Assembly: GCA_045592985.1 (NCBI GenBank)
Contig: JAZNVU010000041.1
Location: forward strand, 76,557-140,556
Source of the DNA: Acutalibacteraceae bacterium
GTDB lineage: Bacteria; Bacillota; Clostridia; Oscillospirales; Acutalibacteraceae
Length of the DNA stretch: 64,000 nt
Direction of reading: 5' to 3'
Shown here: piece after piece, positions 31,339 through 62,892 of the stretch
How positions within the stretch are numbered: position 1 is the first letter of the stretch
Layout of the letters: the number at the start of each line of letters is the position of its first letter
Notes under the pieces: generated by a model
Seen by the model: only the letters and a program-made list of their open reading frames with translations
What the model was told of the DNA's origin: nothing
Databases searched by the model: none
Translations under genes and position numbers: made by a program

Positions 31339-31344
31339 CCTACC

Positions 31345-36893: not shown

Positions 36894-36915
36894 GTCACAC
36901 CTCAAAAAAATTAAT

Positions 36916-45052: not shown

Positions 45053-45058
45053 ATCAAA

Positions 45059-45120: not shown

Positions 45121-45123
45121 AAT

Positions 45124-45636
45124 ATGAAAAATAAGCCAAACTCAGCGCGGTACATAATTACCTCCGCGCTTATAGCGTCGCTTTATACGGCACTAACACT
45201 TGTGTCATCCGCTTTCGGACTAGCATATTCAGGACTGCAATTCCGATTATCGGAGGCTTTGAACATCCTCGCGGCGTTTACGCCAGCCGCAATACCGGGA
45301 CTTACAATCGGCTGCATTATCAGTAATCTGACCAGTCCCTTCGGTATAATCGATATTGTACTTGGTGCCACTGCAACTTTGATATCCGCTTTGTCTATAT
45401 CGGCTATTTCGAAAATGAAAACTAAGTATGTTCCTGTTATCATGTCAATCCCACCAGCAGTTTTAAATGGATTTGTTGTAGGACTTGAAACTGTACTGTT
45501 TGCAACCGATAACGCAGGTTTTTCTCTTTTTTTAATATCTTCTGCTCAGGTTTTTGTGAGTGAAATTGTCATCTGTTGTTTGTTGGGTATTCCACTTTAT
45601 AATTTGCTGAAATCTAAATTCAACAATATATTCTAA
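45124..45636 (+). CDS. queT: queuosine-precursor transporter QueT (ECF S-component-like)
   Basis: 170 aa, 5-6 TM helices. RYIITSALIASLYTALTLV...LQFRLSEALNILA is typical of the QueT family. Confidence 0.8.
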   Translation: MKNKPNSARYIITSALIASLYTALTLVSSAFGLAYSGLQFRLSEALNILAAFTPAAIPGLTIGCIISNLTSPFGIIDIVLGATATLISALSISAISKMKTKYVPVIMSIPPAVLNGFVVGLETVLFATDNAGFSLFLISSAQVFVSEIVICCLLGIPLYNLLKSKFNNIF

Positions 45637-45670
45637 TAAAAAAGCGCTTCGGTTGTCCGAAGCGCTTTAA
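45634..45670. terminator. bidirectional terminator between convergent queT and the surface-protein gene
   Basis: AAAGCGCTTCGG-TTGT-CCGAAGCGCTTT (12 bp), flanked by an A-run and a T-run. Confidence 0.8.
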
Positions 45671-45685
45671 TTATATTATAGGAGA

Positions 45686-48600
45686 TTATTTCGCGAAAAC
45701 TTTCTTACCGGTGATAAGAAGTGCGCCGGCAGAGAGAATGATAACTGCGAGGATGATGATGGGGCTTACAGACGAATCTCCGGTAGGAGCAGAGTCAGTA
45801 GAAGCCGAACCGGTGTAACCTTTGAGGGTGATGGATGCATCATCAAAGTACATATCGCAGCCAACGGTAGTACCAATGCCAACGAACGGAGTGGTTGCAA
45901 CGAAGGTGTAGCTAACCTGCTGCCACTCGCCTTCTTTAAGGTCAGAATACTTAATAACAGTACCCATATTCTGAGCAGCAGAAATTCCGGTAAAGGAAGT
46001 CATGCTCATGAGCGAGATAACGCCGGTATCAACAGAGATAGCAGTGGGTTTTACCCAGAACTTCAAGGTATAGGTCTCACCTACATCAAGAGCATAGTCA
46101 TCGCTTCTCATAAGAGTGAAGGTTTTAACGCCTGCGGTTGCTCCGTTACGGAATACCGAGAAAGAACCATGACGGATGTTAGAAGAATCAAATCCTACAG
46201 CAGTGTTGGTGTACAAGGTGTAACCTGCGGCAATACCAAGCTGAACAACGCTGGCGGGGTAATTTTCGAAGTTTTCCTCGATTTTGCCGAGCTGCCACTT
46301 AGCGTGGAGAACAATAGGATCGGCACCGAATTTTGTATCGGTGAATTTGGTAGCAAAAGTATTATCAGTGTACCAACCGATGAACTTATAACCATTCTTC
46401 TTGGGTGTGGGGAGAACGATGGTATCACCCTCATCACCAGAAATTGCATTAACAGCCTTACCGCCATTTACGTTAAAGCGGATAGCAGAACCGTAAATGT
46501 TCATGTCATTTTCAGGACAACTAATAACAACATCGTCAATGTAAAGTGTTGCGTCACCGCTACAGCCGATAGCCATGTAGTTATCGTTAGCGGTAGCACC
46601 AGTAGCAAGAGTTGCATCGAACTCAATAACGCCCTCTGCCCAACCGTTGGTGTTATCACTATAAGCAACTGAACCAGTCTGCTGCTTATATGCTACCCAG
46701 GTACCGCCCTTATTAGAAAGGAATATATAGAATCTACCCTGAGTTTTGAAGTCTTCAACTTTATACTTGAATTTAACTACGTAACGAGCGCCTTCGTAAG
46801 CACGGATGACCTTGCCGGCATCCTGGAACATTGCACGAGCAATCTGCGTAGCACTCTTGTTGGTACCATATTCAAGGCTATGGCTGAGAACCTTATTGCC
46901 GTTTGCCTCAGTGATGATCTTATAACGGTCAGACTTACGGTCGATGTCGGTAATTGTGTAGTCTTCGTAGTCGATAACAACACCGTCGGTCTCCCACTTA
47001 GCAAACAAGGTAAGGCTGGTGGAAGGAGCAGAGTTAACATCGAGAGCTTTGTTAAAGTTGCGGTCAAGATACCATCCAACGAAGGTCTGGTTATCATACT
47101 CGGGATTCTCGGGCATGCCGATAATAGGCTGACCGGGGAATGCAACTATTTTGCCTACATTAGCATCGTACTCTTCAACATTTGTTCTGAAGCTAAGTTC
47201 AACAACGCCTGCTTTAAGATTCCATGCAGCATAAGCATTCATAATACCTGCAGGCATTATGGTAGAAGTTGTAAGATCGTAAGTTGTAGTAACAGCTTCT
47301 TCGCCTTCTCCGGTAGTAACATCATATTTCCAACCGACAAAATCGTATCCGTACTTTGTAGGTGCAGGAAGATCAGCAGGTTTTCTGCCGACTTCAACAG
47401 CGATGGATTCGCACTCGTCACCGCCATTGGATTCAAATACAATAATAGCATCCTCACCGGTGGTAGAATGGGTCTGAACACGAACATTATCGAAGAGGAC
47501 TGCGGTTGCAAATTCTTCAGGACAATTGGTGCTATTGCTCATACCAATACCGATGCTTGAGTAGGTCTCAGCGTCGGAAGTGGCAATGAAAGTATACTTT
47601 GCATGTGCCCAACCTTGTGCTGCATCGTCATCACGATAATCGAACTCGTCAATAACTGTGATAGTTTTTACAGCACCCTTACCATCAGTATTTACATAGT
47701 AAAGGTTAAGTTTTGTGGGGGTTTCACTATGCTCAACGAAATAGTCGAACTCAACTGTGTAGATACCGCCGTTTACCATGGCAAGCTGATCTGCACCGTT
47801 GTTAACAGTGAAATAGTGATGACCGTTCTTAGACTTAGAATGTGTAAGTTTGAAGAACTTATTGGTGTTGTCCTCGTTAGCAAGGATCTCACCACGGGTA
47901 ACGTAACCGTTACCGGTATTGTAGGTGTAATCGTTAGCGTCTACGCTCCACTCGAAGCCGTTGTTATCAACGTCTTCAAAGTCCATAACGTAATCTTCAA
48001 CAACTACCTGGGGAACGTAAGGCTTAATAACGATATCGTCAATATATACCTTACCTCTGTCGTAGTTACCGTCACCGACAGTGAAGAGAAGGTAAGGATA
48101 ACTGGTTACGTTTGCTGCGCTGAGAGTGAAGGAAAGGTTTCCAACAGCCCAATCATCGGTATAATCGAAGTAAGCAGTTGCAATAGATTGTTTGCTGTCC
48201 GAGTTACCGATACCTTCCTGTTTAGTGACATATGCGCTGATTTTTACGCCCTGCTCATAAGGCTGGGTACCCTTAGTAGCCATGTATCTGAAAGAAACGA
48301 TGTACTGGGTATCAGCAGCGCAGGTAACGCCTTTTCCGCTTCCGGGATAAGCCTCGATAGCCGTGTTAATGGTGTTCTTGCCACCTGCAAGCTGGTCGCC
48401 GAGAAGAACTTTGTTGTTGGCATCATGAGGATCGGCTACGATCTGGAATGCACCGAACTGATTGTTACCGAATTTGCCGTTGGGATCGTAAATACCGTTG
48501 GTGTTAGCATCGGTATAATCGAAGGTAGCAACAATACCGTCATACTTTGCGAACAAAGTAGTATCGTTGCCGGCAACGGTTACCTTGTTTGTGAAGTTGA

Positions 48601-48826
48601 TATCGTCATACCAACCGAGGAATGTTACGCCTTCGGTAGGTACAGTAGGTGCAGGAATTGCAGCACCTTTAGCGAGGTTGAGAGTGTAAACAACGCCGTT
48701 GTTATTCAATGTGTAATCAGTACCTGCAGCACTTGCAGTACCAACAAATGAAACCACACAAAGTGACAGCAGCATTGAGAGGACACAAACAACACTTATC
48801 GCCTTTTTGAAAGCACGAGTTTTCAT
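45686..48826 (-). CDS. large cell-surface protein with InlB-B (Listeria-Bacteroides, Flg_new) repeats alternating with CBM-like beta-sandwich modules
   Basis: 1046 aa. Sec signal (…FVGTASA/AG). Four repeats of the G(Y/F)xFxGWYxDxxF...L(F/H)AKW type. C-terminal SAPTGD, a hydrophobic helix and a KKVFAK tail. Confidence 0.8.
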   Translation of the reverse strand: MKTRAFKKAISVVCVLSMLLSLCVVSFVGTASAAGTDYTLNNNGVVYTLNLAKGAAIPAPTVPTEGVTFLGWYDDINFTNKVTVAGNDTTLFAKYDGIVATFDYTDANTNGIYDPNGKFGNNQFGAFQIVADPHDANNKVLLGDQLAGGKNTINTAIEAYPGSGKGVTCAADTQYIVSFRYMATKGTQPYEQGVKISAYVTKQEGIGNSDSKQSIATAYFDYTDDWAVGNLSFTLSAANVTSYPYLLFTVGDGNYDRGKVYIDDIVIKPYVPQVVVEDYVMDFEDVDNNGFEWSVDANDYTYNTGNGYVTRGEILANEDNTNKFFKLTHSKSKNGHHYFTVNNGADQLAMVNGGIYTVEFDYFVEHSETPTKLNLYYVNTDGKGAVKTITVIDEFDYRDDDAAQGWAHAKYTFIATSDAETYSSIGIGMSNSTNCPEEFATAVLFDNVRVQTHSTTGEDAIIVFESNGGDECESIAVEVGRKPADLPAPTKYGYDFVGWKYDVTTGEGEEAVTTTYDLTTSTIMPAGIMNAYAAWNLKAGVVELSFRTNVEEYDANVGKIVAFPGQPIIGMPENPEYDNQTFVGWYLDRNFNKALDVNSAPSTSLTLFAKWETDGVVIDYEDYTITDIDRKSDRYKIITEANGNKVLSHSLEYGTNKSATQIARAMFQDAGKVIRAYEGARYVVKFKYKVEDFKTQGRFYIFLSNKGGTWVAYKQQTGSVAYSDNTNGWAEGVIEFDATLATGATANDNYMAIGCSGDATLYIDDVVISCPENDMNIYGSAIRFNVNGGKAVNAISGDEGDTIVLPTPKKNGYKFIGWYTDNTFATKFTDTKFGADPIVLHAKWQLGKIEENFENYPASVVQLGIAAGYTLYTNTAVGFDSSNIRHGSFSVFRNGATAGVKTFTLMRSDDYALDVGETYTLKFWVKPTAISVDTGVISLMSMTSFTGISAAQNMGTVIKYSDLKEGEWQQVSYTFVATTPFVGIGTTVGCDMYFDDASITLKGYTGSASTDSAPTGDSSVSPIIILAVIILSAGALLITGKKVFAK

Positions 48827-48861
48827 TATTTTACCTCTTTCTTGAGTGATAAAGCACGTGT

Positions 48862-48896
48862 ACGACTTGGAGTGGCGCTAAACCACTCCGAGTCGT
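48862..48896 (-). other. intercistronic stem-loop between the binding-protein and surface-protein genes
   Basis: 14-position stem ACGACTCGGAGTGG/CCACTCCAAGTCGT (one mismatch on the minus strand) with no U-tract. It is typical of mRNA-stabilising or attenuating hairpins found after ABC binding-protein genes. Confidence 0.5.
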
Positions 48897-48914
48897 TAGT
48901 CCTAAAGCTGCTTA

Positions 48915-50309
48915 TTATTTATACTTGTCAATAAGGTCCTGAATCATCTGGTTAGCCTTAGCAACAGCATCATCAACTACATTGTCAACTGCGTCAAGTT
49001 CGGTTTTAACGCCGGTGGGAGTAGTCTGTTTGGCACCGCCGTTGAAGACTTTAGAACCGGTAGAACCTACGAAGGTTCCGCAAACGTCGTCAAAGTTGAA
49101 GTACTTATCATCAGCCTCAGCTTTGGTAAGTTCGTAGTAGAAGTTACCTGCTTTGTTACTGATGAAGGTATCTTCAAGGTCGTAGTTAGCAGGGTCAAGC
49201 CAGTAGCGCAAGAAGTAACCTGCAGCATCGGCATGAGGAGCGTTAGCTACGATACCATACATACGGTAGACAGAAGATATCTTACCCTTAGAACCGTCCT
49301 CGAGTGCGGGGAGGTATGTATAACCGATATCGTTAAGGTTCATATCTTTGAAGTAACCGGTTTTCTTAAGACCGAAAACACCGATGATGCAGATACCAGC
49401 TTTGCCGTTTATGAAGTCGGTCTGGTCGGCGCAAAGAAGGTTCTGCTCTCTTGCATCGTTGTACCACTGATAGGTCATAAGAAGTTCTTTCTTGTTAACA
49501 CCACTGGAGAAAGTAGCGGTCTTATAGTCATACATACAGAAGGATACACCTGCGGAGTCGCCGAGAACCTCAACGTCTACATAACCGCCGGAGAAGTCGG
49601 GGCCAAGAGCCTTAACGTCCTTCATAACCTTAAGCAAGGTGTTCCAGTTCCAGTTACCATCCTCATAATACTGTTCAGGAGTGGTAAAACCGTTATCCTT
49701 GAAGAGAGACTTGTTGTAGTAAACAAGGTTGGAACCGGACCAGGGAGAACCGATAGTGTTTACGAGATAAACGTGACCGTCGATAGTACCGGTTTCAAGC
49801 ATGGATTTGTGCCAGATAGGCTCGTTAAGGTTGACGGTAGAAACAACGTCAATAGGAGCTGCGATCTGGAGAGTGAGGGGGAAGTTATCTTTACCCTCAT
49901 TGGATTTGAAAGCATCGGGGATATCACCTGCAGCCATAGAGGTGATAATCTTCTCAACATACTGACCCTGAGCAACGGTGAAGATTTCAACGTTGAGGCC
50001 GGTATCGTTATAGAAGTTTGCAAGGGGAACTGCACCCTCGGTCTGATAGTGGTCGATCCAGGTTGCATAACGAACAGTCTGACCCTTGATGCTATCAGAA
50101 ATGGTTGCATAAGGATCAAAATCTTCCCAACCTGCAACGTTAGAAGGGGTGTTGGGAGTAACACTAGGATCGTCTTCTTCAACGACCTTGTTGCTCTGCG
50201 AGCTGGTTGCGGAATCAGTGCTTGCACTTCCGCCACAAGCGGAGAGAGCGCATACTAAAATTGCAAAAGCAAAAATAGCACAGATGATTCTCTTTAAATT
50301 GGTTTTCAT
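48915..50309 (-). CDS. ABC transporter substrate-binding lipoprotein (CUT1 family)
   Basis: 464 aa. Lipobox LSAC-GG, Ser/Thr-rich linker and SBP family-1-like body. Confidence 0.85.
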   Translation of the reverse strand: MKTNLKRIICAIFAFAILVCALSACGGSASTDSATSSQSNKVVEEDDPSVTPNTPSNVAGWEDFDPYATISDSIKGQTVRYATWIDHYQTEGAVPLANFYNDTGLNVEIFTVAQGQYVEKIITSMAAGDIPDAFKSNEGKDNFPLTLQIAAPIDVVSTVNLNEPIWHKSMLETGTIDGHVYLVNTIGSPWSGSNLVYYNKSLFKDNGFTTPEQYYEDGNWNWNTLLKVMKDVKALGPDFSGGYVDVEVLGDSAGVSFCMYDYKTATFSSGVNKKELLMTYQWYNDAREQNLLCADQTDFINGKAGICIIGVFGLKKTGYFKDMNLNDIGYTYLPALEDGSKGKISSVYRMYGIVANAPHADAAGYFLRYWLDPANYDLEDTFISNKAGNFYYELTKAEADDKYFNFDDVCGTFVGSTGSKVFNGGAKQTTPTGVKTELDAVDNVVDDAVAKANQMIQDLIDKYK

Positions 50310-50432
50310 CGAAATTTCCTCCTAAGAAATTTTAAAATATAGCGGAAAAGCGACTACGGCACACCTAACCCACCCCCTCAAAAAGCGGATTCGGTATGCA
50401 CAATAGGGCACTTTTGCCGATACTACACTTAT

Positions 50433-50461
50433 ATAATACCAAAACTTTGCGCAAGTTTCAA
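50433..50461 (-). promoter_or_regulatory. candidate internal promoter for the binding-protein and surface-protein genes
   Basis: Minus strand shows TTGAAA, 17 nt, TGG-TATTAT (extended -10), leaving a leader of about 115 nt. Confidence 0.5.
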
Positions 50462-50605
50462 TCAATTTTTTGCTATTTTTTATGAAAAAATATACAAAAA
50501 TACCGGGAGTTTGTTGTTGATTTTAACACAACACATGTCAATTTCCGCAAATAACAGTAATTTTACATATAATAATGTACTTTTCTTGCTTTTGGTCTTG
50601 GTTTT

Positions 50606-50638
50606 CTCCCCTTTCGGCGTACCGAAAGGGGAGTTTTT
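50606..50638 (+). terminator. 12-bp GC-rich hairpin whose U-tract is on the plus strand only
   Basis: CTCCCCTTTCGG-CGTA-CCGAAAGGGGAG followed by TTTTT on the plus strand. Read on the minus strand (the direction of all neighbouring genes) it is followed by AAAACC. Confidence 0.5.
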
Positions 50639-50642
50639 GATT

Positions 50643-51662
50643 TTAACCTGTAATACCTACGCGGTCGATACTCTTAACAAACTGTTTTTGGAGTATCATA
50701 TACATTATCAGAACCGGAACTATAAACATGACGCAAGCCGCCATAACGACCGCTATGGTCTCGGGGCTACTGGGACCGAACTGTGCTTTCATGATAGCAA
50801 GCATGGCTTCCGGTTCGGTTATACGGTCAAGTTTAACCGCCAACGGCCAACTGTCGGCATACAGGTACATGTTAGCAAGATAGTAGTCGTTCCAATGCCA
50901 GATGATTGAGAAAACGGTAACTGTCATGATAACAACGCCTGAAGAAGGAAGTGCTATACGAATATAGGTCTTGACGGGACCTGCGCCGTCTATCCATGCT
51001 GCTTCCTCAAGTTCTTTAGGCAAGCCTTTGAAGAACTGTACATAGATATAAATAATGATACCTGCTCTGATGCCTACGCCGAACAGTGCCGGGAGGTAGA
51101 AAGTCCATACCGAGTTAAGGACGTTCGGTCGTATATCAACACCTGTAAAGTCATACACAAGGCCAAGCACACCCAAAAGGTCGAGCTTGGTGTAAGTGGT
51201 GACGATAGGAATCATCATCATCTGCGACGGAACAAGAATGAGCAAGAACATGAAGAAAGTAAGTATCTTCTTTTCTTTAAACTCAAATCTTGCAAGACCG
51301 TAAGCAGCAACCGAGCAACTGATAATCTGGATTGCAGCAGCTATAAGTTCAAACACAACCGTGTTAAGAAGCGCTCCTGTGTAGTTAACCAATTTAGTTG
51401 CCATTGAATAATGTTCAAAAGTGATATCCGGTGTTATCCAGACAACCGAAGGGTCGAGGAACGAGTTTCTTGTTCTTATCGAACTACTGAGCATGTAGAA
51501 AATTGGGTACAAAATTATGTATCCGATTGTGATAAGAACAACATAGCGCATAAGCGAAGTGAAAACACTATTTGCTTTAAGCACGGCTTTGTAGCGTGCT
51601 TCGGAACTGGAGTTTTTAACCTTGTGATAAAGGTTTTTTACGTTCTCTATACCTTTAACCAT
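50643..51662 (-). CDS. carbohydrate ABC transporter permease (MalG-like)
   Basis: 339 aa, 6 TM helices, EAA loop LEEAAWIDGAGPVKTYIRIALP. Confidence 0.88.
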   Translation of the reverse strand: MVKGIENVKNLYHKVKNSSSEARYKAVLKANSVFTSLMRYVVLITIGYIILYPIFYMLSSSIRTRNSFLDPSVVWITPDITFEHYSMATKLVNYTGALLNTVVFELIAAAIQIISCSVAAYGLARFEFKEKKILTFFMFLLILVPSQMMMIPIVTTYTKLDLLGVLGLVYDFTGVDIRPNVLNSVWTFYLPALFGVGIRAGIIIYIYVQFFKGLPKELEEAAWIDGAGPVKTYIRIALPSSGVVIMTVTVFSIIWHWNDYYLANMYLYADSWPLAVKLDRITEPEAMLAIMKAQFGPSSPETIAVVMAACVMFIVPVLIMYMILQKQFVKSIDRVGITG

Positions 51663-52633
51663 TAGCTTCTACCTCCTGTGTCCCAGCGCTTAAGGAATAC
51701 CTTAGAATAAATTAACATTATAACAGCCATTATTACACCAACAACCAAGAAATAGAGCCAAAGCATTGCCGATGCGATACCATAGGTTGAAATGTTACCC
51801 ATGAAGACGTATGCACGTTCCATAACAAGATTGGTCTTATCTGTTATAAGTTCGACCATTGTGAAAATGAGAACAAGAATCAAGGTTCTTGCCAACATGG
51901 GAAGTGTGATAAACCAGAACTCTTCCCACTTTGTAGCACCCTCAACCTTGGAAACCTCATAGAGAGAATCCGGAATGGACTGCATACCTGATATAAACAG
52001 AACTATTTGTATACCACAGTTCCAAACAAGGTTGAAAATGTCGTTAAGTATACTGCTGAACACTTCACCTATCTGGGCAGGCAAGGACATGAAAGCCATA
52101 ATATCTTCAACGTTTACCATGTTAGAGGCAAAAGAATCCGAAACGCCCGATGAGGAAAGTTCGCTGCTGGTTGTATTGAAAAGATGCTGAATAACAACAC
52201 CCGATGCAATAATAACCGGCAGGAAGTACAGCGCTCTGAAGAAAAGTCTTCCTTTAAACTTCTGGTTGAGAAGCAGGGCGAGAATAAGACTCAAAATAAC
52301 GATTACCAAAACCGACGGGAGCATTGACGATAAAGTAAGGCTCATGTTTTTGGTAAATTGAGGGTCTTGTCTCAATGCATATTGAAAATTTGCCAGGCCT
52401 GCAAACTTGTATTTGAATTCACCCATGAAACTTACATCACAAAATGAATAGTACAGGGATTTTACTATCGGAACAAGGAAGAAAACCAAAAGTCCTATCT
52501 CCCAATGGAGAACGAACATACGTCCGTATGTACTTTTAAGTGATTCGATACTTTTGTGCTTCTTCTGTTTCTTTTGTTTTACGACTACAGGCGCATCCTG
52601 AACGGCCGTATCTTTTATTTCTTCTGTTGACAT
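51662..52633 (-). CDS. sugar ABC transporter permease (MalF-like)
   Basis: 323 aa. EAA-like loop LYEVSKVEGATKWEEFWFITLP. The stop overlaps the next start. Confidence 0.88.
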   Translation of the reverse strand: MSTEEIKDTAVQDAPVVVKQKKQKKHKSIESLKSTYGRMFVLHWEIGLLVFFLVPIVKSLYYSFCDVSFMGEFKYKFAGLANFQYALRQDPQFTKNMSLTLSSMLPSVLVIVILSLILALLLNQKFKGRLFFRALYFLPVIIASGVVIQHLFNTTSSELSSSGVSDSFASNMVNVEDIMAFMSLPAQIGEVFSSILNDIFNLVWNCGIQIVLFISGMQSIPDSLYEVSKVEGATKWEEFWFITLPMLARTLILVLIFTMVELITDKTNLVMERAYVFMGNISTYGIASAMLWLYFLVVGVIMAVIMLIYSKVFLKRWDTGGRS

Positions 52634-52648
52634 TCAGTTTACGCCTCC

Positions 52649-54940: not shown

Positions 54941-54955
54941 AAAATCTCCTCCTTA

Positions 54956-57211
54956 TCAGAATAATTTAACAATTTCAGTGAAGATGGTGACTAAGAAGCC
55001 CCATGTTTGCTGCAAAAGTATAATTACTGTTACAAGCATGAATACAACAATTGCACATCCGAAGATGGTCAGCAATGATGTTGCCAAGAACTTACCGAAG
55101 CTGTAATCGTGTACTATCATGGAACCTACAATGAGAAGTAGTAGTGTGTACATGGTACATACTGTGGTAAGAACGGTAAGGAACGCTGCTTCTTCAGGAA
55201 CGAGAACGTTGGATACTACTACGTAAACAATGCTTCCAAAGAGTGAGGGAACCAAGCTGTAGCAGATAACGGTGAGTATTTCTTTAATCTTACCTTTACC
55301 GCCGAAGAGTGTACATACTGCCCAGTTGGTAATAGTCCAAAGAATAACAAGACCAACTGTTTTGAGAAGAATCAGCAAAGCATTGTAACTTGCGGGATCG
55401 AAGTATACGAATGCAAAGCCGCCCATTGTGGTCTCAAATACGGTAAATACATAGTAGAGAGCAATAATGACAATACAAATCGGTACAGATGTAAGACCTT
55501 TTTCCTTAATTTCGCGGAAGTTATCAAACGGGTGGGTTACAATGGTTGTTGCCATATGCAACTTTTCGTTCTTAACAAGTCTCATGCTGTGCTTGGTTGA
55601 ATAAACAAGCAAGAAAATAATGAAACCAACAAGTGCAACCGCTACGATCATAATCCAGGTAAAGTTTTCACGGATAAGTTCGGTACGGATGCTTCCGAAA
55701 GCAAGACTGTAGGTTTCACGGTCATAGCCTTGTTTTGCAAGTTCAATGGCTTTTTGGAAGTTTTCAGAAGCTTCTGCTTCGTCGGTACAAGCCTTACCTC
55801 TTACATAGTAAGCCTTGGCAAGTCCGGCATATGCAACCTGGCTGTTACCGTCAAGTGTGAGAACCTCGTTCCACTCGTCCATAGCCTCTTCATAGTCACC
55901 AACGACCGTCTTGGCCTGAGCGCTCTTGACTAGTTTTCCGTAATCGGTTATGCGGAATACGGTGAACGAACCAAACTGACCGTTGTTATCGGAAACTACG
56001 ATGTCATCATTGTTGACATTGTAACCGATAGCACTGATGGACATGAACGTGCCGTCCTGCTTACCGTTTTTAGCACCACCGCCGAACGCCGACAGCAAGG
56101 TACATTCACTATCATAGATAAAGATTCTGCCGTAGGTAGAATCGGCAACGTGAATGAATCCGGCTTTGTCAACCGCAACACTGTTGAGGTTCTGGTACTG
56201 AATGGTATTCTTATAGTCATAGCCGATGCCTTCGTCAACAAAGTTTGTTTCGTCGGAACCAACAAGAACATTACCACCACCCGGATTAAGTCGTTTAACC
56301 TGAGCGTTCTGGGTGAGTTCGCCGGTATTACCGGTAGCGGTATAAACAAATCCTTGGTCGTCAACCCAAAGGTCGGAGAATGTATACGGAAGCGAGGAGA
56401 CCATGGCACTGCGCTGTTCATTGGTAACAAAAAGTCGGTTCCAAAGGGTAACGATAGCCTGAGTAAGTGTTGCAGGAACATCGTTGGCTCCGTAGAAACC
56501 AAGGAAGTTATTTTCGCCTTCATTGGCTTCATCATCAGGTGCGTAAAGAATAGCACCGTAGTAGGAACCGTCACTTAGTATATATATGTAGCCTTCGTTA
56601 TCAACAGCTACCTTTTTGGGACGGTAGTTAAAGCCGTCGGGAATAAGGTTGCCGTTATTTTCATCCTTATTAGGGAGAACATAGTTTTTAATAAGAACGG
56701 CTTCGCCATCAGAGTCTTCACCTTCATCAGCGGTGAATTTCATAACACGTCCGTTATTTGTGTCGGCAATGTAGATGTTTTCGTCTTTGTCAACGAAAAC
56801 GCCCTGTGCACCATAGAAATAATAGGAGTTACGGTCTTCATCTCTGACGTAGTTAATTTTTTGTTTAACCTCATAATTCTCATCAAGAATGTACAAGGTG
56901 GACAAACCGCCGTCAAGAAGGTAAGTAAGTCCGCTTTTTGAAGTGTGAACGTCGGTGAATCTTGCATCACTGGAACATTCAAGGTCATGAGCGTTAAATA
57001 CCTTATATACCTCATACATAGGTTTGCTGTAAACTGCTTTTTTCGTTTTTCCGGTGAACTCGTACCAATAAGTATAGGTGTCATAACCCACCTCATCGGT
57101 CTTTTCGGAAACAGCGGCAACTGAGAAAACAGGAATCAGCATAAGCACTGCAAGTGCCATCATGCAGGCACGAACGAGGAACTTGCGAACATTAAAGTTT
57201 TTCATATCCAT
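54956..57211 (-). CDS. NHL-repeat beta-propeller / TPR-like / Yip1-domain membrane protein
   Basis: 751 aa. Signal or anchor helix, then about six NHL-type blades (GVFVDKDENIYIADTNNGRVMKF, SVAVDKAGFIHVADSTYGRIFIYD and others). A TPR-like helical segment follows (GDYEEAMDEWNEVLTLDGNSQVAYAGLAKAYY), then five C-terminal TM helices of Yip1 type. Confidence 0.7.
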   Translation of the reverse strand: MDMKNFNVRKFLVRACMMALAVLMLIPVFSVAAVSEKTDEVGYDTYTYWYEFTGKTKKAVYSKPMYEVYKVFNAHDLECSSDARFTDVHTSKSGLTYLLDGGLSTLYILDENYEVKQKINYVRDEDRNSYYFYGAQGVFVDKDENIYIADTNNGRVMKFTADEGEDSDGEAVLIKNYVLPNKDENNGNLIPDGFNYRPKKVAVDNEGYIYILSDGSYYGAILYAPDDEANEGENNFLGFYGANDVPATLTQAIVTLWNRLFVTNEQRSAMVSSLPYTFSDLWVDDQGFVYTATGNTGELTQNAQVKRLNPGGGNVLVGSDETNFVDEGIGYDYKNTIQYQNLNSVAVDKAGFIHVADSTYGRIFIYDSECTLLSAFGGGAKNGKQDGTFMSISAIGYNVNNDDIVVSDNNGQFGSFTVFRITDYGKLVKSAQAKTVVGDYEEAMDEWNEVLTLDGNSQVAYAGLAKAYYVRGKACTDEAEASENFQKAIELAKQGYDRETYSLAFGSIRTELIRENFTWIMIVAVALVGFIIFLLVYSTKHSMRLVKNEKLHMATTIVTHPFDNFREIKEKGLTSVPICIVIIALYYVFTVFETTMGGFAFVYFDPASYNALLILLKTVGLVILWTITNWAVCTLFGGKGKIKEILTVICYSLVPSLFGSIVYVVVSNVLVPEEAAFLTVLTTVCTMYTLLLLIVGSMIVHDYSFGKFLATSLLTIFGCAIVVFMLVTVIILLQQTWGFLVTIFTEIVKLF

Positions 57212-57222
57212 AAGTCCCCCCT

Positions 57223-58179
57223 TTATTCCTTAATACCGGCGCTGCTCATGGATTCCATAACGTTACTCTGAGAAATCAGATAAACGAGAATCGGAGGAAT
57301 CATAAGTATGCAGGTAACAGCCATCGCACTACCGGAACGAGCAACACCGCCAGCGGTAATCTGCGACATGATGGTAGGCAAGGTTTTGAGTGTTTCGCTG
57401 AAAATTGTACCCGAGGGAACGCTTGCCCAAACATCACGGAATGTGAAGAGGGTGAGCGTCAACCACATCGGTTTAACTATTGGCATTACTATCGTCCAGA
57501 ATATTCTGAAATATCCTGCACCGTCAATCTTAGCGGCTTCAAGCAATGCATTGGGCAATGCGCCTTCCATGTACTGTTTCATAAGGAAAACACCCATGGT
57601 AGAAGCAAAATGCGGCAGAATGTAAACCCAGTATGTATCAATAATGTTGGTCCATGTGAAGATGAGGTACTGGGGAACTGCCAAAGTATATCCGTTGAAA
57701 AGAAGTGAAAACTGGATGATATAGAATATAACACCCTTGTACTTTATTTTGGATTTACAAAGCACAAACGCAGCCATAGATGCAACCATAACATAAAGGA
57801 ATGTGGTGGTGATAGTTGAGAACAAACTGTTGAATATGTAACGCGAAAGCGGAACACGCAGGTTTGAAAGCAACTCAGGAATAGCTGTGTAGTTGGCTAT
57901 TGTGGGACGATGAACGAAGAATCTCGGAGGGAAAATAAGAATTTCATCGAGAGGCTTCAAGGATGTACATATACAATATATAAGGGGCAGGATAGAAATA
58001 CAGCCTGCGGCGATTATAAAGGCAAAGTAGAAAAAGTTACCTACTTTAGAACGCGTAAAGCGTTTTGCCTGCATTTGAGAAGAACGTCTTCTCTTTGGGG
58101 CTTTCATATCGTTTACCGAGTCGCGCAAGGCTTTTGCACCACTGGGCAATATGAGAACCTCTTCCTTTTTTCTGAACAT
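57223..58179 (-). CDS. carbohydrate ABC transporter permease (MalG-like)
   Basis: 318 aa. EAA loop LLEAAKIDGAGYFRIFWTIVMP. Confidence 0.88.
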   Translation of the reverse strand: MFRKKEEVLILPSGAKALRDSVNDMKAPKRRRSSQMQAKRFTRSKVGNFFYFAFIIAAGCISILPLIYCICTSLKPLDEILIFPPRFFVHRPTIANYTAIPELLSNLRVPLSRYIFNSLFSTITTTFLYVMVASMAAFVLCKSKIKYKGVIFYIIQFSLLFNGYTLAVPQYLIFTWTNIIDTYWVYILPHFASTMGVFLMKQYMEGALPNALLEAAKIDGAGYFRIFWTIVMPIVKPMWLTLTLFTFRDVWASVPSGTIFSETLKTLPTIMSQITAGGVARSGSAMAVTCILMIPPILVYLISQSNVMESMSSAGIKE

Positions 58180-58192
58180 TTACTATCCCACC

Positions 58193-59110
58193 TCACTTTC
58201 CTGTCATATTGAGCAGTTTACCAACAACCAGTCGGAATACTACCATCATAAGGAACAAAATGACCGCAACTGCCGAAGCGTAACCTAATTCGTATCGTAC
58301 GGTACCAAGGTCCTGCATGTGCGATACTATTGTATCTGCCGCATAGCTGACACTTGGGAAACCTGCAAGTTGAATTGCGATACCGCTTATTGAGAATGCC
58401 GAAGAAATCTGCATAACCGCACTGAACAACAACATGTGTTTCATGGTAGGAAGTGTGATGTACCAGAGCTCCTGCCAACGGTTACGGATTCCGTCTATCG
58501 AACCGGCTTCGTAAAGTTCGTTGTTAACGTTCTGAAGACCGGAAATGTTGGAGAGGAAGGAAACACCCATACTAGACCAGAGCTGAACTGCTATAACGAT
58601 GGGCTTTATGTATTCTGCGGTACTGAGCCAGGTAACCGGCTCGGTAATGAGACCTAATGACAGCAATGCGCTGTTGACGTAACCGTAGCTATCGCTACTG
58701 AAGGCAACCTGCCAGATGAAAACAACGTTACCGGCAAGAGCAGGAGCATAGAACATGAACGAAAGCAAGGTACGAACGATAGGTGAAAACTCATTAATAA
58801 ACCATGCAAGAACGAATGCAAGCAAGAAACCTGCAGGTCCGCAAATGATAGCGAAGAGAAGTGTGTTCTTGAAAACTACGGGGAAAACGTCGTCTTCAAC
58901 AAACATTCTGAGGTAGTTACCAAGTCCCGCAAAGGATGGTGCATTAATCATATCATAGTTAGTAAAACTAAGTGCGATTGATGCAAGAATCGGCAATACA
59001 AGGAACAGGAAGAAGAACAGGAAGAAGGGGGCTAACATTATGTATGAAGGAAGGTTTTCTTCCCATATGGCTCTTCTTTTTATCTTTTTGAAATCAACTT
59101 GTTTTTCCAT
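58193..59110 (-). CDS. sugar ABC transporter permease (MalF-like)
   Basis: 305 aa. EAA loop LYEAGSIDGIRNRWQELWYITLP. Confidence 0.88.
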   Translation of the reverse strand: MEKQVDFKKIKRRAIWEENLPSYIMLAPFFLFFFLFLVLPILASIALSFTNYDMINAPSFAGLGNYLRMFVEDDVFPVVFKNTLLFAIICGPAGFLLAFVLAWFINEFSPIVRTLLSFMFYAPALAGNVVFIWQVAFSSDSYGYVNSALLSLGLITEPVTWLSTAEYIKPIVIAVQLWSSMGVSFLSNISGLQNVNNELYEAGSIDGIRNRWQELWYITLPTMKHMLLFSAVMQISSAFSISGIAIQLAGFPSVSYAADTIVSHMQDLGTVRYELGYASAVAVILFLMMVVFRLVVGKLLNMTGK

Positions 59111-59131
59111 AAGTAATACCCTCCTTCTCTA

Positions 59132-62100
59132 TTATTTGGCATACTCGGCGATTTTGCGGAGAATCTCGTTATCCGCTATCTCGCCCCATTTGAGCATTGC
59201 GTCTTTTTCATTGTCTTCGCCGTTAATAACTGCCCAGTAAGCCTGGTCAACAGCACGTGATACGTAGTAACCGCCGGGAACCTCAGGAAGTTCCTCTACC
59301 CAAGACCACTGCTCAAGAAGAATGTCGAGGTCATCAGCATTCCACGAGTAGGATTCAAAGGCCTGCTTATTAGCGGTAGCGGTACGCGAAACGGTACCGA
59401 GAATAGATTCAACGTTATTGTTGTATCTGAGCTGAGTTTCAGCGCTGGTCCACCAGCAGAGGAACTGCCATGCTGCATCCTTGTTTTCGGAAGGAGCAAC
59501 AACGCTACATCCGGTACCCGAACCACCGATGGAACGGTTGATGGAAGCAATTGTTCCATCCTCATTATAGGTTGGAATGCCGGGGATGGGAGCTATTGTC
59601 CAACGTCCCTGAATTTCGGGAGCTGCCTGATTAAGCTGAGTGTAAACAGTGTAAGCCGAAACACCGAGAGGCATTACGCCGGTACGGAAACGGTTGTAGA
59701 AGTCGGCCTGCTTTTCAATGCCGTACTTAGTGTACATATCGGTCCACTGAGTAAATGCAGCGATTGCCTCGCTCGAAGTCATGGTGGTCATGTTGCGGTC
59801 CTCATTGTAAAGGGGTACCTGATTCTGAGTGAGGAATGTCGGGAAAAGGTTAAGGCTACCCATACCTGCGTTGACCGAAACGGTCGATGCTATCTTGGTA
59901 TAAGGAATGTACGCCTTCATATTGTTTCTCTGGAGGATTGTGGCAGCCTCAAGGTAGTTGTCCCAAGTCCAGCCCAAGCCACCGTTGGCTTGTTTAGGAT
60001 CTGCAATACCGAGGTCGTTAAACACGTCGGTACGGTAATACATTATATAGAAGCTCTGCGTATCGGGCAGTGCGAACAAATGCTCACCGTCAGCATCGGT
60101 ATACCAATAAGGAACATCGGCAGATGCCTGGAAACGTTCAAGAACAGTCTCGTAGTCGAGCATATAGTTCTCACCGTCATCAACGGTTGAGTACTTATCA
60201 CCTTTGAAGTTGGTCAGGTCATAAAGTGCGCCACGCATACCAAGGTTAACAGGGTCAGTACGTGACAAGTGGAGTGAAAGGTCGGGGAAGTTGCCCGCAA
60301 GAATACCCTTAATAAGCGATGCGTCAACTATTTCAAGTTCAACACTGATACCGGTCTCGACGCTGAATGATTCCTGAATAAGGTTACTAAGCACCTGACA
60401 CTGGTCACGTCCCCAGTTAACCCAGATTCTTACTTTGCCCTGGTCGCCTACCTCAGCGGCACCGCCAATGGTGCTGAAGTTATCGCTGAACGAGAGGCAG
60501 AAACGCTGGAACTCGAACGCAAAGGTCTCGAAGAAACCTGCGTGATTATTGGTAAAGCCTTTGTCAGGAGAAGCAAACTGCATCTGGTCGACACTTAAAG
60601 GCATTGTCTTCATTTCATAAAGCCAAGAACAAACGGTGGTGTAGTTAGAGTAAAAGTCGGACAGGTAGTTCTGTGCGGTGTACGGATTATCGTACATACT
60701 CATAAGAACACGTGCCATATTGTTAAGAGCTGATATGTATTTGTTGCTGCGGTTACCCGAAAGAGCCTTCATGTCGTTAGCAAGCACAGTAATGTCTTCA
60801 TGAGTGCTGTAAAGGGTATCCTGAAGGTCAGCAATCTGTTTGAAAAGGTTGTAGTCACGGTTAGGGTCAGGAGAGTCGCCGGTGATCATAACGATTTCAA
60901 TGTATTTATCACCGATAGCGTCAACAATCTCGCTAAGTCTTTTATAGAACTCAGAGGTCTCACCCAAAGTGACGGTAAGAGTGAAGGTGTGCTTGCCTTC
61001 TTCGAGGTAGAAGAGGTACGGAGTATCTCCCTCACCAAATTCCCAGAAGGTCCAGCTTGTGCAGTACATGAAACTAAGCGATTCACACTCTTTAAACGGT
61101 GTTTTGCCGTCAATGGTGAGAGCACGATAAGAATAACCGTCAATAACGGCTGCCTGCTTATAGTTCATACCCAATTTATAGAGACCCGACTTAGGAACAT
61201 CGACAACCCAAGTGATTGCGTCGCCGGGAACCTGCCAGTTTGTACTACCTATATAATTAAGAATAGTTTTAACAGGGTTTTGAGGAGTGACATCAGCAGA
61301 ACTATTATCGGTCTTGGCAACGAGAGAGTTGGTCGACTTAATCCAAGCGTCCTCGCCCTCTATCTCAAGTGCTTTGCCGTCATAAACAGTCTTATCGGAA
61401 TGGGATGCAGCATACTCGCCGTAAGTAATGGCATCTTCGGGTGCTTTGAAGGTGATGCTTGCAAGTACAAAAGGCTCATATACCGATTTAACAGTAATGG
61501 TATGGGTACCTGCAGTAAGAACTACCTTATAAGGAGCAGCCTCAACACCTGATTTATCGGTAACATATGCAGTACTGAACTGATCATAGCATACCTGCTC
61601 GGGAGTGAGCTGGTTTTCGAGTGAGTCTTCACGGATATCTCCTGCAGGCTTGCTCAAAGAAGCACCATTATTGACAAAATTACGGGGCAACAAGAAAGAA
61701 TCAAGGCCTGCGTAAAGATAAGGGTCCTCTCCCTCGGGAATATCAGCTATATCAAAAATAATGCCGAGTTCTACGGGAGTTGTAGAAGTCTTATCGTCAA
61801 TAGTATCAGTAGTGCCCTTGGTTTTGACAAGAGGAAGATAGTTGAACTGAATATTATAAAATGCCGTTTCAGGCACGGTAAACTCGTAGGTTACGGTACC
61901 CTGTTGTTTATATTCATTGTTATCCTTCCACACAAGAACTTCCATGTTTTCTTTTTGATCGGCAACCTTGTCGCTCAAAACATCCATGTTCTCTTTGGAA
62001 ATAACAGTTTCGGCATCCGCATCGCATTCCTTATAGTTCGCTCCAAGGATAACAATATCCTCTTTGGCGTAAGGAATACCCTCGTTTTCCTTCAAGTACC

Positions 62101-62254
62101 TATCGTACTCATCGTAGGTCGAGATGTTGGATGAGGACGATGTCGCATCAGAAGCGCCTACGCTCTCGGCAGAGGCAGGTACTACGGCAAAAAGCGACAT
62201 AGATACGGCAGAAGCCAAAGCTGTGGCCAGCAGTCGTCTCATGACAAATTTCAT
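59132..62254 (-). CDS. giant extracellular solute-binding protein: about 590-aa CBM-like N-terminal extension fused to a CUT1-type SBP domain
   Basis: About 1040 aa. The start is placed at ATG 62254 (MKFVMRRLL) after a GAAGGTGAAG RBS. Sec signal VVPASA/ES with no lipobox Cys. Beta-sandwich-like modules (YEFTVPETAFYNIQFNYLPL, WVVDVPKSGLYKLGMNYKQ). C-terminal SBP (KVRIWVNWGRDQCQVL...). Confidence 0.8.
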   Translation of the reverse strand: MKFVMRRLLATALASAVSMSLFAVVPASAESVGASDATSSSSNISTYDEYDRYLKENEGIPYAKEDIVILGANYKECDADAETVISKENMDVLSDKVADQKENMEVLVWKDNNEYKQQGTVTYEFTVPETAFYNIQFNYLPLVKTKGTTDTIDDKTSTTPVELGIIFDIADIPEGEDPYLYAGLDSFLLPRNFVNNGASLSKPAGDIREDSLENQLTPEQVCYDQFSTAYVTDKSGVEAAPYKVVLTAGTHTITVKSVYEPFVLASITFKAPEDAITYGEYAASHSDKTVYDGKALEIEGEDAWIKSTNSLVAKTDNSSADVTPQNPVKTILNYIGSTNWQVPGDAITWVVDVPKSGLYKLGMNYKQAAVIDGYSYRALTIDGKTPFKECESLSFMYCTSWTFWEFGEGDTPYLFYLEEGKHTFTLTVTLGETSEFYKRLSEIVDAIGDKYIEIVMITGDSPDPNRDYNLFKQIADLQDTLYSTHEDITVLANDMKALSGNRSNKYISALNNMARVLMSMYDNPYTAQNYLSDFYSNYTTVCSWLYEMKTMPLSVDQMQFASPDKGFTNNHAGFFETFAFEFQRFCLSFSDNFSTIGGAAEVGDQGKVRIWVNWGRDQCQVLSNLIQESFSVETGISVELEIVDASLIKGILAGNFPDLSLHLSRTDPVNLGMRGALYDLTNFKGDKYSTVDDGENYMLDYETVLERFQASADVPYWYTDADGEHLFALPDTQSFYIMYYRTDVFNDLGIADPKQANGGLGWTWDNYLEAATILQRNNMKAYIPYTKIASTVSVNAGMGSLNLFPTFLTQNQVPLYNEDRNMTTMTSSEAIAAFTQWTDMYTKYGIEKQADFYNRFRTGVMPLGVSAYTVYTQLNQAAPEIQGRWTIAPIPGIPTYNEDGTIASINRSIGGSGTGCSVVAPSENKDAAWQFLCWWTSAETQLRYNNNVESILGTVSRTATANKQAFESYSWNADDLDILLEQWSWVEELPEVPGGYYVSRAVDQAYWAVINGEDNEKDAMLKWGEIADNEILRKIAEYAK

Positions 62255-62398
62255 TTCTTCACCTTCAAAAAAATATTCCGCGGTCTTTATCCCCGACCAC
62301 AAAGGGTGCTGATTAAAGTCGCTACTCATGGTCGACGAAAAGACCTCAAGCGGTCAGAAGTCGTCAACACACCCAGTTTGCATACTTCACTACCATGT

Positions 62399-62427
62399 AT
62401 TATCTAATAAAATCAAGATTTTGTCAA
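62399..62427 (-). promoter_or_regulatory. candidate main promoter of the 62254-50643 operon
   Basis: Minus strand shows TTGACA, 17 nt, GATAAT. A second TTGACA lies 13 nt upstream. The leader is about 135 nt. Confidence 0.55.
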
Positions 62428-62700
62428 CACAAATTTGTCAAAAATTCACTAAAATAAGCAAATTTTTTTAATTTTTTATACTAAGAATTGCTCTTAATGA
62501 CAGTATTATGCCTTTTTTCGGGTAATTGCGACTGGCAAATTGCACAAAATCACAGCTTACACACTAAACCTTTTGATCCTGCAAACCCACAAATTTACCC
62601 TTTTTAAAATTTATGCGGGTTGTCCCCTCGGTATTCTGACGTTGTAACATCAGCCACGCCTTTGAGTTATTTGTATATTTTTCCAACAAAATCATATGTA

Positions 62701-62770
62701 ACATTACACAGAACTTGATTCGGAACAATTTGTGTAATGTATTTTTTGTGTAATTTTTGTGCATTTGTCA
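62701..62770. promoter_or_regulatory. operator-like repeats in the divergent control region
   Basis: A perfect 10-bp inverted repeat ACATTACACA (62701-62710) / TGTGTAATGT (62731-62740). Direct TTGTGTAAT copies lie at 62729-62737 and 62746-62754. The TTGTCAA motif recurs at 62421, 62435 and 62765. Confidence 0.4.
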
Positions 62771-62892
62771 ATCTGCTCAAGTCTAAGCGGTGTTTTTCTA
62801 CATATAAAAAGCGATTTTGGGGTTGATTCCCCACTACGGTTGGTTCATATTAAGGTTAGAAACACCAAGGTTTACCGAAAGGAATGAAACAT

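Follow-up and report, generated by a model that had tools for sequence, protein, structure and literature searches.

A conserved dual-importer locus of gut Clostridia with a DagB-like lipoprotein and a Yip1-family membrane protein

Introduction

Oscillospirales and Acutalibacteraceae are abundant, mostly uncultured degraders of fibre and glycans in the guts of ruminants, other animals and humans, yet how they take up glycans is poorly understood. We analysed a stretch of 64,000 nucleotides from an Acutalibacteraceae bacterium (GenBank assembly GCA_045592985.1, contig JAZNVU010000041.1, forward-strand positions 76,557 to 140,556), hereafter the window, in which positions are counted from the first letter. 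On its minus strand, nine genes, g1 to g9, place two pairs of sugar ATP-binding cassette (ABC) permeases around an NHL-TPR-Yip1 membrane protein (g4) and a large lipoprotein of the DUF5696 family (g5). The locus raises the question of what two importers and two such proteins do together: a sequence-only reading of the window had proposed one dedicated machine for glycan capture, processing and import, distinct from a standard Gram-positive utilisation locus. We find that g1-g7 form a core of fixed order in 77 of 85 related loci, and profile comparisons together with a predicted structure indicate that g5 is a distant relative of the marine exo-alpha-glycosidase DagB. The locus is a variant of the Gram-positive sugar-utilisation locus rather than a categorically new system or machine, and we lean, by a modest degree, towards reading it as a glycan-utilisation module built on the fixed seven-gene core.

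A seven-gene core of fixed order

The nine genes, in their direction of transcription, encode the following products.

59132-62254, minus strand: g1, giant secreted solute-binding protein (SBP) of 1040 residues, with a type-I signal peptide, CBM35/Golvesin_C-like modules, a conserved linker segment of ~120 residues and a C-terminal SBP_bac_1 domain
58193-59110, minus strand: g2, MalF/UgpA-like CUT1 permease of transporter A; BPD_transp_1, NCBIfam UgpA/GlcT-like, EAA-type loop EAGSIDG...LP
57223-58179, minus strand: g3, MalG/UgpE-like CUT1 permease of transporter A; BPD_transp_1, canonical EAA loop EAAKIDGAGYFRIFWTIVMP
54956-57211, minus strand: g4, NHL-TPR-Yip1 membrane protein; N-terminal transmembrane helix/signal sequence, NHL at ~45-421, TPR-like at 423-494, multi-pass Yip1 at ~512-750
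52649-54940, minus strand: g5, DUF5696 lipoprotein of 763 residues; LLAGC lipobox, N-terminal beta-sandwich, (beta/alpha)8 barrel, C-terminal beta-sandwich
51662-52633, minus strand: g6, MalF-like CUT1 permease of transporter B; NCBIfam UgpA/MalF-like, EAA-type loop EVSKVEGA...LP
50643-51662, minus strand: g7, MalG-like CUT1 permease of transporter B; BPD_transp_1, EAA loop EAAWIDGAGPVKTYIRIALP, start overlapping the g6 stop
48915-50309, minus strand: g8, lipoprotein SBP of 464 residues; SBP_bac_1, SBP_bac_8, LSACG lipobox
45686-48826, minus strand: g9, surface protein of 1046 residues with a C-terminal transmembrane helix; alternating InlB-B/Flg_new repeats and CBM4_9-like modules

An open reading frame (ORF) check of the window confirmed these nine minus-strand genes at 45686-62254. 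The genes, the gaps of 11-21 nt, the stop/start overlap and the lipoboxes all lie where the sequence-only reading had placed them, and Pfam and NCBIfam scans of all nine proteins reproduced every one of its domain calls.

A profile of DUF5696 homologues finds at least 543 relatives in species-representative genomes, of which the context survey covered the 80 closest; ORFs of 85 related loci were searched with the window proteins, and counts of flanking genes are limited to the sequence around each locus. All of the 80 closest relatives come from Oscillospirales, Acutalibacteraceae or "Clostridia" metagenome-assembled genomes, from the guts of yak, sheep, goat, deer, cattle, rabbit and human (Hadza) hosts, and several genomes hold three to four separate paralogous cassettes. 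The order giant SBP, permease, permease, NHL/Yip1, DUF5696, permease, permease recurs, with the same order and strand, in 77 of the 85 loci. Seven of the eight incomplete loci have their missing genes beyond a contig end, which leaves L002 as the sole real exception. This survey had been set beforehand as the test capable of refuting the partnership of the Yip1 and lipoprotein genes with the permeases, and it found them to be conserved partners; the order SBP, permease, permease, YIP1, DUF5696, given in the sequence-only reading, is real and extends to the second permease pair.

The core order spans DUF5696 identities from 81% down to 24%. Members at 24-28% identity retain NHL-TPR, Yip1, DUF5696, permease and permease, with NHL-TPR and Yip1 as separate adjacent genes; among them, L086 continues with an SBP, and L087 and L088 are short contigs showing part of the set. 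Because the NHL-TPR and Yip1 parts occur fused or split but always at the same position, the propeller and the Yip1 domain are expected to work together. Of the 77 complete loci, 42 have a g8-like lipoprotein SBP following g7 and 25 have a g9-like match. Median identities to the window proteins in distant loci are 65% for g2/g3, 51% for the g1 SBP domain, 49% for g6/g7, 42% for the g4 Yip1 part, 39% for the g4 NHL part, 37% for the g1 carbohydrate-binding module (CBM) region, 34% for g5 and 30% for g8, rates in keeping with a transport core that is conserved and outward-facing parts that can adapt.

Two kinds of variant locus stand out. In L002 (2161-4422), a 25%-identical DUF5696 gene adjoins a Gfo/Idh/MocA oxidoreductase gene and rubredoxin/desulfoferrodoxin genes, with no transporter or Yip1 neighbour, and this protein may belong to a separate functional clade. 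In L003 and L004, the genes downstream of the cassette encode a WbsX-like protein (PF14307) and, divergently, an AraC regulator; DUF5696 is longer there, at 886 residues, and NHL and Yip1 are separate genes.

The lipoprotein g5 is a distant relative of DagB

The sequence-only reading had described g5 as an orphan lipoprotein and had seen no recognisable extracellular glycoside hydrolase (GH) in the locus; both statements are overturned by remote homology and structural similarity to DagB/ZgGH129, NagBb (GH129) and GH101. The protein matches Pfam DUF5696 (PF18952) with 444 bits and an E-value of 1e-132 over model positions 4-612 of 612, in a family of 6,485 clusters at 50% identity, and 60 of 83 homologues were detected as lipoproteins. 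An AlphaFold2 (AF2) model of g5, built on 46 sequences, reached a pLDDT of 88.6 and a pTM of 0.89. Its top Foldseek match in the PDB is DagB/ZgGH129 (5opq, 4e-33, TM score 0.66 on the target), followed by the GH129 enzyme NagBb (5wzr, 4e-27, TM score 0.72), GH101 endo-alpha-GalNAc-ases (~1e-20) and then GH36 and GH31. These matches are retaining alpha-glycosidases that share the plan of beta-sandwich, (beta/alpha)8 barrel and beta-sandwich.

Profile comparisons point to the same branch. When the DUF5696 family profile is searched against the PDB, its match to 5OPQ/8RZG (E 4e-7) comprises three collinear stretches, and the NagBb structures 5wzn/5wzq are found only weakly, at E 0.02-0.1. A 201-residue DagB fragment scores 28.5 bits against Pfam DUF5696, over the gathering threshold of 25.6, and hhalign aligns the DUF5696 alignment with DagB-type fragments at a probability of 96.2% and an E-value of 2e-9 over 422 columns; the DagB side of this comparison consisted of only three fragments, collected with a DagB fragment as the seed, which sufficed for hhalign but not for a strong profile on the GH129 side. 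Single-sequence phmmer of g5 against the PDB returned nothing useful, and a sub-profile of the catalytic domain against the PDB was swamped by artefacts from designer pentatricopeptide-repeat (PPR) proteins and gave only a short NagBb stretch that did not settle the catalytic residues.

The published account of DagB delimits a beta-sandwich (residues 35-299), a TIM barrel (300-620) and an Ig-like domain (621-693), identifies D202, D486, E517 and E531 as essential acids, and argues for treating the DagB branch as a family of its own, apart from true GH129 (PMC5698469). Consistent with that separation, g5 has no match to Pfam Glyco_hydro_129 (PF11308) even at E 10. Profile and model evidence thus place g5 as a homologue, and a distant relative, of the DagB/GH129-like retaining exo-alpha-glycosidases, and tie DUF5696 to the DagB "GH129-like" branch and not to GH129 proper.

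Conserved acidic residues suggest that g5 is catalytic

Residue conservation was counted over 169 diverse DUF5696 members. D560 is present in 168 of them and N596 in 162; position 246 is Asp in 161 and Glu in 6, position 476 is Asp in 151 and Glu in 9, and D604 is found in 135. Five residues separate D560 from the position that aligns with DagB D486, in a stretch with an alignment gap, D604 falls within a few residues of DagB E531, and D246 stands about where DagB D202 extrapolates. The spacing between D560 and D604 is 44 residues, and that between DagB D486 and E531 is 45; the corresponding pair of NagBb, which we take to be D435 and E478, is 43 apart. We consider g5 to be probably an active glycosidase.

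A competing view holds that g5 is a non-catalytic, membrane-tethered glycan-binding protein that passes oligosaccharides to transporter B, cleavage being left to GH16 or other enzymes. We regard this as unlikely. It would suit the variability of S555 and D594, which align with DagB D486 and E517, the lack of conservation of D551, the constancy of DUF5696 next to changing partner glycanases, and the standing of g5, with g8 and the CBM region of g1, among the fastest-evolving parts of the locus. The invariant D560, together with the conserved D246, D476, N596 and D604 in and around the barrel, nevertheless forms a pattern such as an active site would be expected to show, the Asp spacing fits the nucleophile-acid/base pairs of both NagBb and DagB, and the window locus contains no other extracellular catalytic candidate.

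The NHL-TPR-Yip1 protein g4 as a proposed scaffold

Pfam Yip1 (PF04893) matches residues 557-725 of g4 at E 3e-17 over model positions 3-171 of 173, and NHL and TPR models also match. The AF2 model (pLDDT 80.8) comprises an N-terminal helix, a six-bladed propeller, TPR-like helices and a helical membrane domain. In Foldseek, the matches to the ectodomain are confined to generic NHL propellers, namely those of TRIM2, TRIM71 and Brat, and to the extracellular sensor domain of PknD (1rwl, 8e-9). The catalytic role once suggested for the Yip1 fusion finds no support here, given that only binding or sensor propellers were matched; a lyase or lactonase propeller was likewise considered and dismissed, since no enzyme beats the generic NHL binding domains and virginiamycin B lyase appears far down the list.

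A precedent for a Yip1-family protein acting beside an ABC transporter is YknW, which is encoded with the Bacillus YknWXYZ transporter, is required for it and modulates its assembly (PMC4887032). By analogy, we propose that g4 may serve as an assembly scaffold. It could instead be a substrate sensor or gate, in which NHL-TPR binds glycan or a loaded SBP, much as is supposed for sensor propellers such as PknD, and Yip1 modulates transport or signals to a remote regulator; the PknD match (an extracellular NHL domain), the lack of a regulator in the window locus, a gap that a sensing g4 would fill, and an NHL part whose divergence (39% median identity) keeps pace with that of the substrate-facing parts speak for this role. 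We consider it quite improbable, since g4 has no recognisable cytoplasmic output domain and many sister loci keep g4 despite having their own AraC regulator; that every paralogous cassette retains its own g4 suits a structural subunit equally.

Two anciently diverged importers and their surface partners

The core encodes two anciently diverged CUT1-type importers, A (g1/g2/g3) and B (g8/g6/g7), with g8 as the presumed binding protein of transporter B. Both sets combine an SBP_bac_1 protein with two permeases of the MalF/MalG BPD_transp_1 type, the combination by which a CUT1 importer is recognised, and the BPD_transp_1 match of g6, at 25.9 bits, is marginally under the Pfam cut-off. Only 19% of 340 residues are identical between g3 and g7, and g6 is only remotely related to g2, so that the pairs are not the outcome of a recent duplication. 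The canonical EAA loop occurs in 77 of 79 g3 homologues and in 80 of 80 g7 homologues, and g2 and g6 carry variant E-x-x-x-x-[DE]-G...LP loops; with EAA-type coupling loops in all four permeases, both pairs should depend on an ATPase.

The sequence-only reading had recognised no ATPase in the locus, and no ABC ATPase gene, including the MsmX/MsmK/MalK type, is encoded anywhere in the 64-kb window. Firmicute CUT1 importers commonly share one MsmX/MsmK-type ATPase encoded elsewhere in the genome, which makes the missing gene unremarkable and ordinary for importers of this kind.

The binding protein g1 is CBM-extended, as had been predicted. Pfam places SBP_bac_1 at residues 659-966 and adds a weak CBM35 match; in the homologues, the extension of ~630 residues weakly matches CBM35 in 10 of 37 and Golvesin_C in 21 of 37. 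Its best-conserved stretch, residues ~441-560, directly precedes the SBP domain. Domain searches of the homologues found no catalytic domain in the extension, and single-sequence phmmer of the g1 N-terminus against the PDB gave nothing useful. A cleavable signal peptide without lipobox is present in 63 of 73 g1 homologues and a C-terminal anchor in none of the 73, and in g1 itself no lipobox or transmembrane anchor was found. An untethered SBP is odd in a Gram-positive cell, and the lack of a membrane tether calls for a docking partner.

Downstream, g8-like proteins are lipoproteins in 40 of 40 homologues. Pfam detects four Flg_new repeats and a weak CBM4_9 match in g9, 18 of 19 g9-like homologues have the C-terminal transmembrane helix, domain searches of g9 detected no catalytic domain, and single-sequence phmmer against the PDB again yielded nothing useful.

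Transcriptional layout of the locus

The following signals flank or divide the locus.

62399-62427, minus strand: promoter-like site upstream of g1; TTGACA, 17-nt spacer, GATAAT, the best match in the region (11/12)
50606-50633, minus strand: 12-bp GC-rich hairpin directly 3' of g7; -24.5 kcal/mol, z -6.1
50433-50461, minus strand: second promoter-like site, upstream of g8; TTGAAA, 17-nt spacer, TATTAT, extended TG (10/12)
45641-45668, minus strand: terminator-like hairpin closing the locus; T-rich tail on the minus strand, common to the convergent queT gene

From g1 to g6 the intergenic gaps are 21, 13, 11, 15 and 15 nt. At 51662 the end of g6 and the start of g7 share 1 nt, and the next gaps widen to 333 nt (g7-g8) and 88 nt (g8-g9). 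Ribosome-binding sites of the GGAGG type precede g2-g9. The g1 ORF is extendable to 62329, and the signal peptide MKFVMRRLLATALASAVSMSLFAVVPASA/ES starts at the ATG at 62254. The hairpin behind g7 has no U-tract on the mRNA strand, where A-rich sequence follows on the operon mRNA; its T-run sits on the plus strand only, on which no gene is read here, and it is possibly a 3' stabiliser or a partial stop. Given the gaps, the overlap and the positions of the hairpin and the promoter-like sites, g1-g7 form a single compact unit; for g8 and g9, read-through and a promoter of their own may both contribute to expression. Both promoter-like sites claimed earlier are present at their positions and are the top minus-strand intergenic matches; the claim is weakened to a plausible one by the background, in that the region holds 40 promoter-like matches against 35.9 +/- 7 in shuffled sequence, no excess. 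An Rfam scan of 45000-64000 found no structured RNA.

This layout bears on another alternative for the whole locus, namely two independent sugar ABC transporters flanking two unrelated genes with no functional coupling. The remote relationship of the permease pairs, each with its own SBP, would agree with it, as would the hairpin and second promoter-like site that set g8/g9 apart. Set against these are the identical order and strand in 77 of 85 loci across DUF5696 identities of 81%-24% and across paralogues in one genome, the 11-21 nt gaps with one overlapping pair, and the NHL-TPR and Yip1 parts that, fused or split, always hold the same position. Recent horizontal spread of a single element might mimic such conservation, but the components of different loci, at 30-65% identity, contradict it. 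We therefore hold uncoupled transporters to be highly improbable.

GH16 partners and regulators

Divergent from g1 stands the following gene.

62884-64000, plus strand: divergent GH16 gene (laminarinase-like), without signal peptide, running past the window end; catalytic motif EIDVEE at 63634-63651

Among solved structures it is nearest to laminarinases and beta-1,3(4)-glucanases (4DFS at 4e-15, 3AZX, 7WWC). L006, the locus most closely related, likewise has this divergent GH16, of 399-400 residues. A 239-residue minus-strand ORF at 63163-63882 was discarded as an antisense shadow of the GH16 gene. The sequence-only reading had named GH16 proteins without signal peptides as the only recognisable glycosidases nearby, and the survey shows that GH16 is not incidental: besides this divergently adjacent copy, it is the commonest neighbour of the cassette, immediately upstream in 32 of 69 loci and within the examined flanks in 40 of 85. 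The GH16 genes of sister loci are nearly always co-oriented with the cassette and form two classes, one secreted, lipoprotein or dockerin-bearing with 430 to >1000 residues, the other small and signal-less with 283-400 residues, like that of the window. GH36 alpha-galactosidases number 7 among downstream neighbours, and GH2 and GH28 also occur; with such varying GH partners no single substrate can be assumed.

In one clade of cassettes, made up of L033, L035, L040, L042, L047, L049 and L055 (~14.1-17.3 kb), a conserved run of co-oriented genes, beginning with those for a ~731-residue and a ~268-residue protein, follows the cassette and a GH16 of >1000 residues precedes it. By their sizes these two may be the GH36 and AraC genes; if correct, this would hint at a galactoside-containing substrate for this clade.

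That the window locus lacks a regulator was confirmed within the locus itself, but it cannot be generalised, as AraC regulators flank the cassette in sister loci, where they make up 9 of 71 downstream genes and 3 of 69 upstream genes. The nearest AraC gene in the window (28695-29639, plus strand) is 16 kb from the locus and is the window's only sugar-type regulator.

A model for capture, cleavage and import

Putting these components together, we slightly favour a Gram-positive glycan-utilisation module working as follows. The transmembrane-anchored g9, with its CBM/InlB-repeat architecture, and the CBM35-like modules of g1 would hold polysaccharide at the cell surface. An endo-glycanase would cut it, a role that a secreted or lipoprotein GH16 would play in about half of the sister loci; the window has no secreted GH16. 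The membrane-tethered, DagB-like g5 would then exo-trim the fragments, with D560 as the proposed nucleophile, D604 as the proposed acid/base and D246 and D476 assisting. Products could enter via both CUT1 importers, powered by a shared MsmX/MsmK-type ATPase encoded elsewhere, and the oligosaccharides might be finished in the cytoplasm, in the window by the signal-less divergent GH16. The Yip1 domain of g4, as in the YknW analogy, would dock to the permeases, and its NHL-TPR part would hold the untethered g1 and/or g5 near the transporters. As to the substrate, the GH16 partners point to beta-1,3/1,3-1,4-glucans and the g5 fold points to an alpha-linked terminal sugar.

Several points weigh against this reading. 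The characterised relatives of g5 all act on alpha-linkages and the GH16 partners on beta-glucans, a mismatch of linkage, and GH16 is not in the examined flanks of 45 of the 85 loci, others of which carry GH36, GH2 or GH28. The hhalign alignment pairs DagB D486 with S555 and E517 with D594, both of which vary in the family (D594 is acidic in 45 of 169), so that the assignment of D560 as nucleophile and D604 as acid/base is proposed from conservation and spacing, not from structural superposition; D551, at a strand end in a GH13-like "SLD" motif, was tried as the nucleophile and rejected, being Asp in only 29 of 169. The scaffold reading of g4 has three grounds, namely synteny, topology and the YknW analogy, and YknW serves a MacB-type exporter. 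Both promoter sites, as consensus matches, are plausible rather than demonstrated. Finally, the context survey represents the 80 closest of at least 543 DUF5696 relatives.

"One dedicated machine", the phrase under which the locus was originally described, is an attractive hypothesis. In its strongest form, the seven core proteins would form one cell-surface complex, in which g4 would physically link the two importers, the unanchored CBM-SBP and the DagB-like g5, and which would channel cleavage products directly into both importers, as a Gram-positive counterpart of the utilisomes discussed below; this is a reading that we consider doubtful.

Relation to known systems

DagB/ZgGH129 (ZGAL_3152; PDB 5OPQ, 8RZG-8RZK), the exo-alpha-1,3-(3,6-anhydro)-D-galactosidase of Zobellia galactanivorans, resembles g5 in its three-domain architecture and is its top structural and sequence-profile match, yet identity is ~12% and DagB E517 and E531 have no firmly conserved counterparts in the g5 family. 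In its own pathway DagB acts downstream of a GH16 endo-enzyme (PMC5698469). It is periplasmic and belongs to a Sus-type system of a marine Bacteroidete, whereas g5 is a lipoprotein of gut Clostridia encoded between ABC permeases and a Yip1 protein. Given the ~12% identity and the herbivore-gut habitat, it is unlikely that g5 has the identical 3,6-anhydro-D-galactosidase activity, or that carrageenan is the substrate in such a habitat. The second and third tiers of fold matches are NagBb (PDB 5WZN), an alpha-N-acetylgalactosaminidase from Bifidobacterium bifidum, and GH101; unlike NagBb, g5 is without a match to GH129 proper (PF11308). NagBb is intracellular and is not known to be linked to a transporter.

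The Gram-positive polysaccharide-utilisation locus (gpPUL) is said to have been defined by Sheridan et al. in 2016 by the co-location of GH, transporter and regulator genes. The present locus resembles gpPULs in its SBP and MalF/MalG-like permeases, its co-located GH16 and GH129-like g5, its CBM surface proteins, an ATPase expected to be encoded elsewhere and the AraC genes of many sister loci. A GH beside the transporter is present twice, as g5 within the operon and as the divergent GH16; a co-located regulator is absent in and beside the window locus. It differs from gpPULs in having two importers in fixed order, an obligatory Yip1 protein, an unanchored SBP with ~630 residues of CBM-like modules, and an invariant core that is reused with varying GH partners. 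The parts list is familiar; what is unfamiliar is the fixed architecture with two importers, a Yip1 partner that is obligatory and a CBM-SBP without an anchor.

Like g4, YknW is a bacterial membrane protein of the Yip1 family whose gene accompanies those of an ABC transporter. YknXYZ, however, is an exporter of the MacB type that includes a membrane-fusion protein, the paper on YknW describes no NHL-TPR ectodomain for it, and the partners of g4 are type I importers. The Sus-like utilisomes of Bacteroidetes, which combine SusCD, surface glycan-binding proteins and surface GHs, share the concept of capture, cleavage and import, but none of their components is homologous to the locus, their envelope is entirely different, and a physical assembly is hypothetical for g1-g7. 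We also asked whether the locus might be connected with the "mucinolysome" described in Limousia (Acutalibacteraceae) and dropped the idea, the paper on it mentioning no ABC transporters, GH129 or these genes. In agreement with the earlier statement that the gene order has no characterised member, no paper in the literature collection searched mentions DUF5696, PF18952 or their pairing with Yip1, or links Yip1 proteins to carbohydrate ABC importers.

The cassette occurs in multiple copies per genome, set in variable GH16, GH36, GH2 and AraC contexts. If g5 is active, DUF5696, which annotation pipelines now label "unknown function", would become a large, new and widespread glycoside hydrolase family. 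If g4 acts as proposed, it would supply a first function for the large bacterial Yip1 family and explain a recurrent, ignored ABC-transporter accessory; such a partner role would also test whether Gram-positives build integrated complexes for capture, cleavage and import. The analysis yields specific hypotheses open to mutational testing.

The rest of the window

Apart from the locus, the window consists of housekeeping genes (queT, RNase H, lexA, cmk, ispH-S1, gidB, parB, a V-type ATPase operon, genes of the methylerythritol-phosphate (MEP) pathway and murein genes). Tandem GH16 genes at 30505-31338 and 31345-32169 (minus strand), one of which also matches SKN1/KRE6, adjoin the AraC gene at 28695-29639 (plus strand); beside them are a GNAT/SCP2 protein and a 598-residue protein without Pfam match (25754-28701, minus strand). 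These genes may amount to a second cluster, one that processes beta-glucan in the cytoplasm, and their regulator could control the g1-g9 locus too. The GH16 pair at 30505-32169 was rejected as part of the locus itself, since ParB, GidB, IspH-S1, Cmk and further housekeeping genes lie in between.

The housekeeping setting, with gidB and parB (32378-33988), possibly places the window near the replication origin. DUF624 proteins are usually encoded with sugar ABC transporters; here, a DUF624 membrane protein stands alone beside a 243-residue protein without Pfam match (35333-36169 and 36174-36905, both on the minus strand). A V/A-type ATPase operon at 9786-17960 (minus strand) encodes subunits I, E, C/AC39, A, B and D and a small ORF, downstream of MEP-pathway genes and uppS/cdsA/frr/pyrH. 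The 669-residue ORF at 36971-38980 (minus strand) fuses IspH/LytB to four S1 RNA-binding domains, and a protein with a Prok-RING_1 finger and DUF2628 is encoded at 42991-43947 (plus strand), between a NUDIX hydrolase gene and lexA.

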